From: a virus
Length of the DNA: 64,000 bases
IMG/VR virus record: IMGVR_UViG_3300035171_000016
Coordinates: 32,001 to 96,000 of that record
Reading direction: 5' to 3' (one strand)
In this document: one piece after another, positions 27,110 through 27,317 of the stretch
Position numbering within the stretch: the first letter of the stretch is position 1
Layout of the letters: every line of letters starts with the position of its first letter
Notes under the pieces: generated by a model
What the model was told of the DNA's origin: nothing
Databases searched by the model: none
Seen by the model: only the letters and a program-made list of their open reading frames with translations
Translations under genes and position numbers: made by a program

Positions 27110-27140
27110 AAAAAACCACCGAATCTTTTTTCGGTGGCTT
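27110..27140 (-). terminator. Intrinsic terminator of the leader attenuator
   Basis: AAGCCACCGAA-AAAAGA-TTCGGTGG followed by TTTTTT. Confidence 0.85.
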
Positions 27141-27165
27141 CCAAATTTTCTTTTATTTCTCTATT

Positions 27166-27173
27166 AAGCCACC
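27166..27173 (-). promoter_or_regulatory. Antiterminator strand
   Basis: GGTGGCTT, 1 nt after the leader stop codon, perfectly complementary to the terminator 5' arm AAGCCACC. Confidence 0.75.
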
Positions 27174-27174
27174 A

Positions 27175-27282
27175 TTACACTTTTTTATCTCCCGTCCAAT
27201 TGCGTTGAATATAATGCGACGGAGAAGTACCTTTTATGAGGCATTCTCTAAACATCGCTAAACTGGTCATATCAACTGTCAT
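27175..27282 (-). CDS. 35-aa attenuator leader peptide containing all 20 amino acids
   Basis: MTVDMTSLAMFRECLIKGTSPSHYIQRNWTGDKKV*; 30 distinct codons. Confidence 0.8.
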   Translation of the reverse strand: MTVDMTSLAMFRECLIKGTSPSHYIQRNWTGDKKV

Positions 27283-27288
27283 ATTTAT

Positions 27289-27317
27289 ACTATAGTACCA
27301 TTTTACACAAAAGTAAA
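27289..27317 (-). promoter_or_regulatory. Promoter of the leader peptide (probably leaderless mRNA)
   Basis: TTTACT-N17-TATAGT-N6-ATG; the spacer also contains GTGTAA. Confidence 0.65.

Follow-up and report, generated by a model that had tools for sequence, protein, structure and literature searches.

How does a phage that carries a long series of transfer RNA (tRNA) genes set the level at which they are transcribed? Phage tRNA arrays are now thought to be an insurance against codon mismatch and against host defences that cleave tRNAs. The question is raised by a locus in the IMG/VR virus record IMGVR_UViG_3300035171_000016, a phage genome in a single contig of 147,760 base pairs (bp) with 31% GC, whose source is a rhizosphere metagenome. 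A stretch of 64,000 nucleotides (nt) of this record (positions 32,001 to 96,000, hereafter the window, to which all coordinates refer unless stated otherwise) contains a region with at least 30 tRNA genes, which is headed on the minus strand by a compact cassette consisting of a promoter (P1), a 35-codon open reading frame (ORF) with the layout of a leaderless gene, a short segment just past its stop codon (segment A) and an intrinsic terminator, whose 5' and 3' arms are referred to as segments B and C (Table 1).

The initial annotation of this stretch described the cassette as an attenuator that gates the tRNA array. The anatomy of an attenuator is present and statistically unusual, but gating is an overstatement, as a second promoter (P2) intervenes between the terminator and the tRNA genes. 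Our own reading, which we hold at a little under an even chance, is that P1, the leaderless ORF, segment A and the terminator form a ribosome-dependent transcription attenuator that reports translation performance.

A bistable terminator at the head of the tRNA region

Strong intrinsic terminators are scarce in this phage, with about five in 148 kilobases (kb). The tRNA region lies between two of these, one at the end of the cassette and one at the far end of the region. The terminator of the cassette has an 11-bp stem, a 6-nt loop and a T-run, with a folding energy of -15 to -17 kcal/mol. It was found at -15 kcal/mol by a custom scan and was missed by a consensus scan, because G-T pairing extends its stem into the T-run. 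The leader ORF is the only small ORF with the leaderless promoter layout that bears a terminator (0 of the 23 others do), and given the rarity of terminators in the genome the succession of promoter, mini-ORF and terminator calls for an explanation.

Segment A, GGTGGCTT, is exactly complementary to AAGCCACC, which opens the terminator 5' arm, and is also a 7/8 copy of the 3' arm. This complementarity had been pointed out in the initial annotation, and it is perfect over 8 nt. The probability of finding a perfect 8-nt complement to the 5' arm in the 150 nt before the terminator is 0.003 in shuffled sequences and 0.006 in random genome segments, and at none of the other strong terminators in this phage does the upstream complement to the 5' arm exceed 6 nt; an antiterminator arising here by chance is thus unlikely.

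Folding of the nascent RNA up to the terminator loop places the A:B pairing in the minimum-energy structure, as a hairpin of -11.9 kcal/mol that is closed over an A/U-rich loop. The leader up to segment B has a z-score of -3.15, with 0 of 200 shuffles folding as well. In the full-length RNA, a fold with A:B enforced (-41.2 kcal/mol) and the terminated fold (-41.9 kcal/mol) are nearly isoenergetic, and on these predictions the terminator at the head of the tRNA region is bistable. The position of a ribosome also enters the predicted outcome: masking the footprint of a ribosome on the stop codon abolishes A:B, and the pairing survives when the A site of the masked ribosome is at codon 10, 20, 28 or 32. 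All 20 amino acids are encoded within codons 1-29, which fall inside the zone in which a stall is predicted to leave segment A free.

The bistability of the element, together with its 25-nt A/U-rich loop carrying a UGG beside segment B, would also suit a switch that is set by a factor and is independent of translation, in which a protein or an RNA (a tRNA, for example) binds the A-rich loop or segment A and decides between A:B and B:C. We consider such a switch highly improbable. No T-box or other riboswitch model matches positions 26880-27340 at E-values up to 10, none of the candidate binding motifs is found at a second place in the genome, and why the stop codon should abut segment A is left unexplained. 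A T-box riboswitch in particular was rejected, for lack of a covariance model match.

Leaderless layout of the leader ORF

Shine-Dalgarno signals are absent 5' of the genes of this phage: G makes up 3-6% of positions -10 to -1, and Shine-Dalgarno-like 4-mers precede 9 of 146 genes, against a background of 9%. Across the whole genome, about 40 genes have the layout TTGAC[A/T], 16-17 nt, TAnnnT, 6 nt, ATG. The gap between -10 box and ATG is sharply peaked, with 21 sites at 6 nt and eight at 7 nt on the minus strand, and the ORFs behind these fixed-distance -10 boxes reach 265 amino acids (aa). A spacing of 6 nt would put the transcription start on or beside the A of the ATG, which implies that the early genes of the phage are expressed as leaderless mRNAs. 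Examples of the layout on the minus strand of the window are found at 23683, 22554, 20159, 18796 and 17331. Promoters of the Bacteroidota type (TAnnTTTG) were rejected as a relevant signal, the motif having no tie to gene starts here.

The promoter, ATG and ORF of the cassette lie on the minus strand where the initial annotation had placed them, and the -10 box of P1 stands 6 nt from the ATG, as in the standard leaderless layout of this phage. Contigs of four DNA runs were compared with the region, one run being the probable source sample; no RNA run carrying the region and no expression data turned up. Near-identical strains are represented by short pieces in two rhizosphere DNA runs, one of them with two differences, and in one such strain (run X2, rhizosphere) the P1 spacer differs and both hexamers and the 17-nt spacing are kept. 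Because the start layout equals the leaderless pattern of the genome exactly, the 35-codon ORF is probably translated. Its codon usage lies between that of in-frame and off-frame windows, in the lower tail of the real genes.

A plainer account of the same layout is that of an ordinary small early gene, a leaderless mini-gene for a 35-aa peptide whose terminator insulates a tRNA unit started at P2, the remaining oddities being coincidence. The promoter and ATG are arranged in the manner standard for the genome and small ORFs of this kind are common (24 of 20-85 aa, the 35-codon ORF included); the codon score resembles that of three other higher-GC small genes of the set (-1.1 to -1.2); and with P2 directly after the terminator and a second strong terminator at its far end, the tRNA region looks like a bracketed unit. 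The account has to accommodate, however, that none of the 23 other ORFs of the set carries a terminator of its own, that elsewhere in the region small genes and tRNAs appear to be co-transcribed without insulation, that the peptide has no homologue in the searches described below, and that two coincidences, each with a composition-matched chance of about 0.003, would be needed. We regard this explanation as somewhat unlikely.

The unit from P1 to the terminator could also be a stand-alone gene for a regulatory RNA of about 175 nt, possibly with a dual function, in which the ORF is incidental. A promoter followed by some 175 nt and a strong terminator is a typical small RNA unit, the GC content is above that of the genome (39% versus 31%), and the unit as a whole folds better than its shuffles (z = -2.55). 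Outside the A:B pairing and the terminator, however, the structure of the RNA is unremarkable, no Rfam family matches it, the genome and the fetched loci contain neither a second copy nor a homologue, and an ATG at the exact modal distance of 6 nt that opens 35 codons is unlikely for a non-coding RNA. This explanation seems to us improbable. The leader ORF taken alone folds no better than shuffles (z = -0.56), and the hairpin within it that had been put forward as a ribosome pause site finds no support and was rejected.

Composition of the leader ORF

The leader ORF encodes 20 different amino acids, all of them by codon 29 and each of them one to four times, and it uses 30 different codons, with no repeat among the 27 codons from 6 to 32. 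A recount bore out these figures of the initial annotation, and the codons that it listed as samples of isoacceptor boxes are all present. In long ORFs, all 20 amino acids occur in 0.03% of 35-codon stretches and at least 30 codons in 0.013%. Among the 56,659 stop-free 35-codon stretches in the six frames of the whole genome, 21 have 20 amino acids and 98 have at least 30 codons; a single one has both properties, and it is exactly the leader ORF from ATG to stop, so that the proposed comparison with random stretches of the genome leaves it unique. The first 35 codons of the small ORFs with leaderless layout contain 10-18 amino acids and 14-25 codons, compared with 20 and 30 in the leader ORF. 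Its higher GC content (39%) favours diversity of codons and amino acids, but shuffles of the ORF that keep its composition still give low probabilities, 0.0034 for 20 amino acids and 0.0004 for both properties.

A model for ribosome-dependent attenuation

In the attenuator that we propose, RNA polymerase would start on the A of the ATG or one base away from it, and a 70S ribosome would load on the 5' AUG and trail the polymerase. A ribosome that keeps pace with the polymerase as far as the stop codon would cover segment A with its footprint, leaving B to pair with C; the terminator would form and an RNA of about 175 nt would be released. If the ribosome is absent, or stalled anywhere from codon 1 to about codon 32, segment A would be free and would pair with B as it emerges, the terminator would be blocked, and the P1 transcript would enter the tRNA region, adding to the output of P2. 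Of this scheme, the analysis shows the sequence elements with their statistics and the predicted alternative folds; we infer where transcription starts, that the ORF is translated, how ribosome and polymerase are timed, and whatever consequence follows for the amounts of tRNA.

A further step is to suppose that the composition of the leader, with its 20 amino acids and 30 codons, has itself been selected, so that the ORF is a roster of the whole decoding set and senses a shortage of any tRNA. Starvation or a host anticodon nuclease would then stall the ribosome before codon 33, the antiterminator would be freed, and transcription of a tRNA region covering 19-20 amino acids would be boosted. 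We think this extension unlikely.

The main points for the attenuator are the two independent oddities, each with a composition-matched chance near 0.003, the stop codon abutting segment A, the unique placement of the terminator, the probable translation of the ORF from a leaderless start, and a parallel in phage phiCbK that is described below. Together they lead us to favour it tentatively, a shade short of an even chance.

Several observations weigh against it. The leader ORF lacks the enrichment in a single amino acid and the codon runs of classical attenuators. No significant upstream partner that could act as a 1:2 protector was found for segment A, only weak pairing around the stop codon, so that the default after ribosome release, or without translation, would be readthrough, and termination would need tight timing. 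P2 lies between the terminator and the first tRNA gene and further promoters lie within the tRNA region, as the initial annotation had cautioned. Because these promoters are 3' of the terminator, the tRNAs are independent of readthrough, and to judge from this order of elements the cassette can add to transcription of the tRNA region but cannot gate it. P2 belongs to the standard TTGACA class of the phage and has no ATG behind it, and the transcript of the tRNA region would start there. The small p-values overstate the case, since the features were picked post hoc from a very large scan. The initial annotation had suggested looking for such cassettes upstream of other tRNA arrays; 16 distant metagenomic loci contain 44 starts of tRNA clusters, and not one of these is preceded by a terminator within 400 nt. 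The searches set out in the next section brought up no relative with the cassette, and the closest relative has no tRNA region at the corresponding position.

If the attenuator is real, the supply of tRNAs would be coupled to measured translation performance, attenuation of the trp type would extend from amino-acid genes to the decoding machinery, and the cassette would be a small, naturally occurring reporter that responds when any tRNA runs short. Even if the idea of sensing fails, the roughly 40 leaderless genes without Shine-Dalgarno signals and the predicted bistable terminator at the head of the tRNA region would stand.

Relatives of the locus

A blastn search of positions 26500-28500 against phage records matched a tRNA only, and the 35-aa peptide had no tblastn match below E = 1 among 50,697 phage records. 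The peptide has no exact match in a collection of 15 billion proteins, and four matches among 1.84 billion representatives were rejected as tandem-repeat artefacts in unrelated large proteins. No homologue was found for a 72-aa protein embedded in the array, the flanking proteins gave nothing against viral contigs either singly or as an alignment, and a pattern derived from the structured RNA that precedes the tRNAs (see below) had no match in viral or genome contigs.

The closest relative found is a 178-kb metagenome contig (L001) with 66-82% protein identity in the neighbouring genes. It has the same upstream genes, and genes for an HSP20-like protein and a GIY-YIG endonuclease replace the tRNA region; the homologue of a 153-aa gene of the window (16683-17144) lies on the other side. 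Because L001 differs at this position, the tRNA region and its leader are an insertion or rearrangement in the present lineage. Comparison of L001 5533-6276 with positions 16683-17144 and 27466-27786 of the window places the 10-kb tRNA region between genes that are adjacent, with their order swapped, in L001.

Just upstream of the cassette, on the minus strand (27466-27786), is a gene for a 106-aa protein of phrog_21607, with the motifs MCPEQY and YLRLRHG. Its family is widespread, being represented in 408 metagenome loci with up to 56% identity, and in 17 of 84 fetched loci the gene lies inside a phage tRNA array, a placement that suggests a tRNA-related function. In the loci of this family the gene is followed by tRNAs at a distance of 2-17 nt or is separated from them by ordinary genes, and the cassette is not present. 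Between this gene and the cassette (27330-27468, minus strand) are two short frames of 23 and about 25 codons, which resemble the two parts of a single small gene put out of frame by one base at an A run; the cause could be a sequencing error, a slippery site or decay of the gene.

Table 1. Features of the cassette, the tRNA region and the phiCbK parallel.
Feature	Coordinates	Strand	Details
Second promoter candidate, overlapping P1	27329-27299	-	TTCACA-18-TGTG-TAAAAT
Promoter P1	27289..27317	-	sigma-70-type; -35 box TTTACT 27317-27312; 17-nt spacer; -10 box TATAGT 27294-27289
Leader mini-ORF	27175..27282	-	ATG at 27282; 35 sense codons; TAA 27177-27175
Segment A (antiterminator 5' strand)	27166..27173	-	GGTGGCTT; one base past the stop codon
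A/U-rich spacer	27141..27165	-	25 nt; loop of the antiterminator hairpin
Intrinsic terminator	27108..27140	-	5' arm (segment B) 27140-27130; loop 27129-27124; 3' arm (segment C) 27123-27113; T-run
Promoter P2	27079..27107	-	TTGACA-17-TAGAGT; directly 3' of the terminator
Structured non-coding RNA	26909..27072	-	about 165 nt, between P2 and the first tRNA; z = -2.2
First tRNA gene, tRNA-Gly(GCC)	26908-26835	-	
tRNA region	17449..26908	-	at least 30 co-oriented tRNA genes, small leaderless protein genes, internal promoters
Strong bidirectional terminator	17348..17377	-	closes the tRNA region
phiCbK cassette	L202 4500-4720 = JX100813 51300-51520		

The tRNA region and its surroundings

The tRNA array that the initial annotation placed downstream of the cassette is there, but it is less compact than was implied, extending over about 10 kb with protein genes and internal promoters. 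Its tRNA genes were counted with ARAGORN and Infernal, together with five read by eye, and they cover 19 amino acids plus probably Tyr. At least 28 of the 30 codons of the leader ORF are decoded by the region, with the decoding of GAA unverified and that of CTC resting on a doubtful Leu(AAG) call or on four-way wobble by Leu(UAG). Five minus-strand tRNAs that ARAGORN misses at its default settings were read by eye or from Infernal matches, at approximately 22718-22795 for Lys(UUU), 18966-19047 for Gln(CUG), 22564-22636 for Ile(GAU), 19056-19130 for Thr(UGU) and 25662-25746 for Leu(CAA), and further atypical tRNAs may be hidden in several gaps of 80-230 nt in the region. A pentanucleotide microsatellite (CTTTT, about 10 repeats) lies between tRNA genes at approximately 18140-18190 on the minus strand. 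The other small leaderless ORFs inside the region have no terminators and no unusual composition, and a pattern of one leader per block of tRNAs in this genome was therefore rejected.

The structured RNA between P2 and the first tRNA contains two GCGAAAGC hairpins and matches no Rfam family. An 86-nt part of it (26976-27061) is identical in a short contig from an aquatic metagenome with different flanks, where the element is thus found in another context. The 12-mer GGTCATAGGGTG occurs on the minus strand both within it (26985-26996) and at about 23118-23129, in two structured intergenic stretches, which may be due to chance; a relationship between this RNA and the gap at 23145-22971 based on the shared 12-mer was rejected, as the flanks do not align.

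Comparison with known systems

No paper on the attenuation of phage tRNA genes was found in the literature. The nearest parallel is in phiCbK (JX100813), an unrelated Caulobacter phage in which depositor-annotated terminators stand directly before three tRNA blocks. Before the block of Phe-Val-Ile-Ile-Val-Gln-Gln tRNAs there is a promoter in the leaderless layout, TTGACA-17-TAGGGT-7-ATG, opening a 32-codon ORF with the stretch QFVRQIQVV and, at codons 19-22, an 11-nt near-copy of the 3' arm of the terminator. By this arrangement the phiCbK cassette has the same anatomy as the present one, and the parallel raises the prior for a switch without being an independent proof. The two differ in that the phiCbK ORF is biased to the amino acids of the block that follows, although the enrichment is modest (by a rough estimate, Phe, Val, Ile and Gln together make up 10 of the 32 residues), whereas the present ORF has all 20 amino acids; and in that the copy of the arm lies inside the ORF in phiCbK and just past the stop codon here. 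Also unlike phiCbK, the cassette here is found only at the head of the region, with a promoter between the terminator and the tRNAs.

The classical leader-peptide attenuators of Escherichia coli and Salmonella include trpL, hisL, leuL and pheL, as well as the multivalent leaders of thrL and ilvGMEDA. The present cassette shares with them a short ORF (translated there and probably here), an intrinsic terminator, an alternative pairing that captures its 5' arm, and a choice of fold by the position of the ribosome, which is a prediction in the present case. The energies are on a similar scale, at about -12 kcal/mol for the antiterminator and about -17 kcal/mol for the terminator. Unlike the classical cases, it has no run of a single amino acid and no clear 1:2 protector hairpin, its predicted default when untranslated is readthrough, it is leaderless with no ribosome-binding site, and it precedes tRNAs rather than biosynthetic enzymes, with a promoter intervening. 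T-box riboswitches bind uncharged tRNA directly and need no ORF; they resemble the proposed attenuator in linking the status of tRNA to the choice between terminator and antiterminator, and differ from it in that no T-box model matches here.

Leaderless regulatory ORFs have precedents in the short-ORF attenuators predicted in Deinococcus deserti (PMC4007540) and in the polycysteine attenuator ORFs of mycobacteria (bioRxiv 10.1101/834739), where, as in the present cassette, the transcript begins with the ORF and a ribosome-binding site is lacking. In both kinds a single amino acid is abundant in the ORF, and the genes under control, in cells, are the synthetase or biosynthetic genes that correspond to it, whereas the present ORF is in a phage, holds all amino acids and stands before tRNAs. 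In the upstream ORFs that sense stalling, such as E. coli toiL (PMC12121999), the vmlR leader (PMC9226507) and the msrD leader (PMC10314930), stalling of the ribosome within the short frame turns on the genes downstream and the signal is general translation trouble, as it would be here. They respond to antibiotics that target the ribosome and control toxin-antitoxin or resistance genes, and none of them is reported as sampling all amino acids or as controlling tRNA genes. Set among these systems, the attenuator proposed here, if real, is a variant of leader-peptide attenuation, set apart by the lack of enrichment in one amino acid, rather than a new principle, and a leader that does act as a roster of the decoding set would stand at the far end of a so far undescribed class, that of leader-peptide attenuators controlling the tRNA genes of phages.

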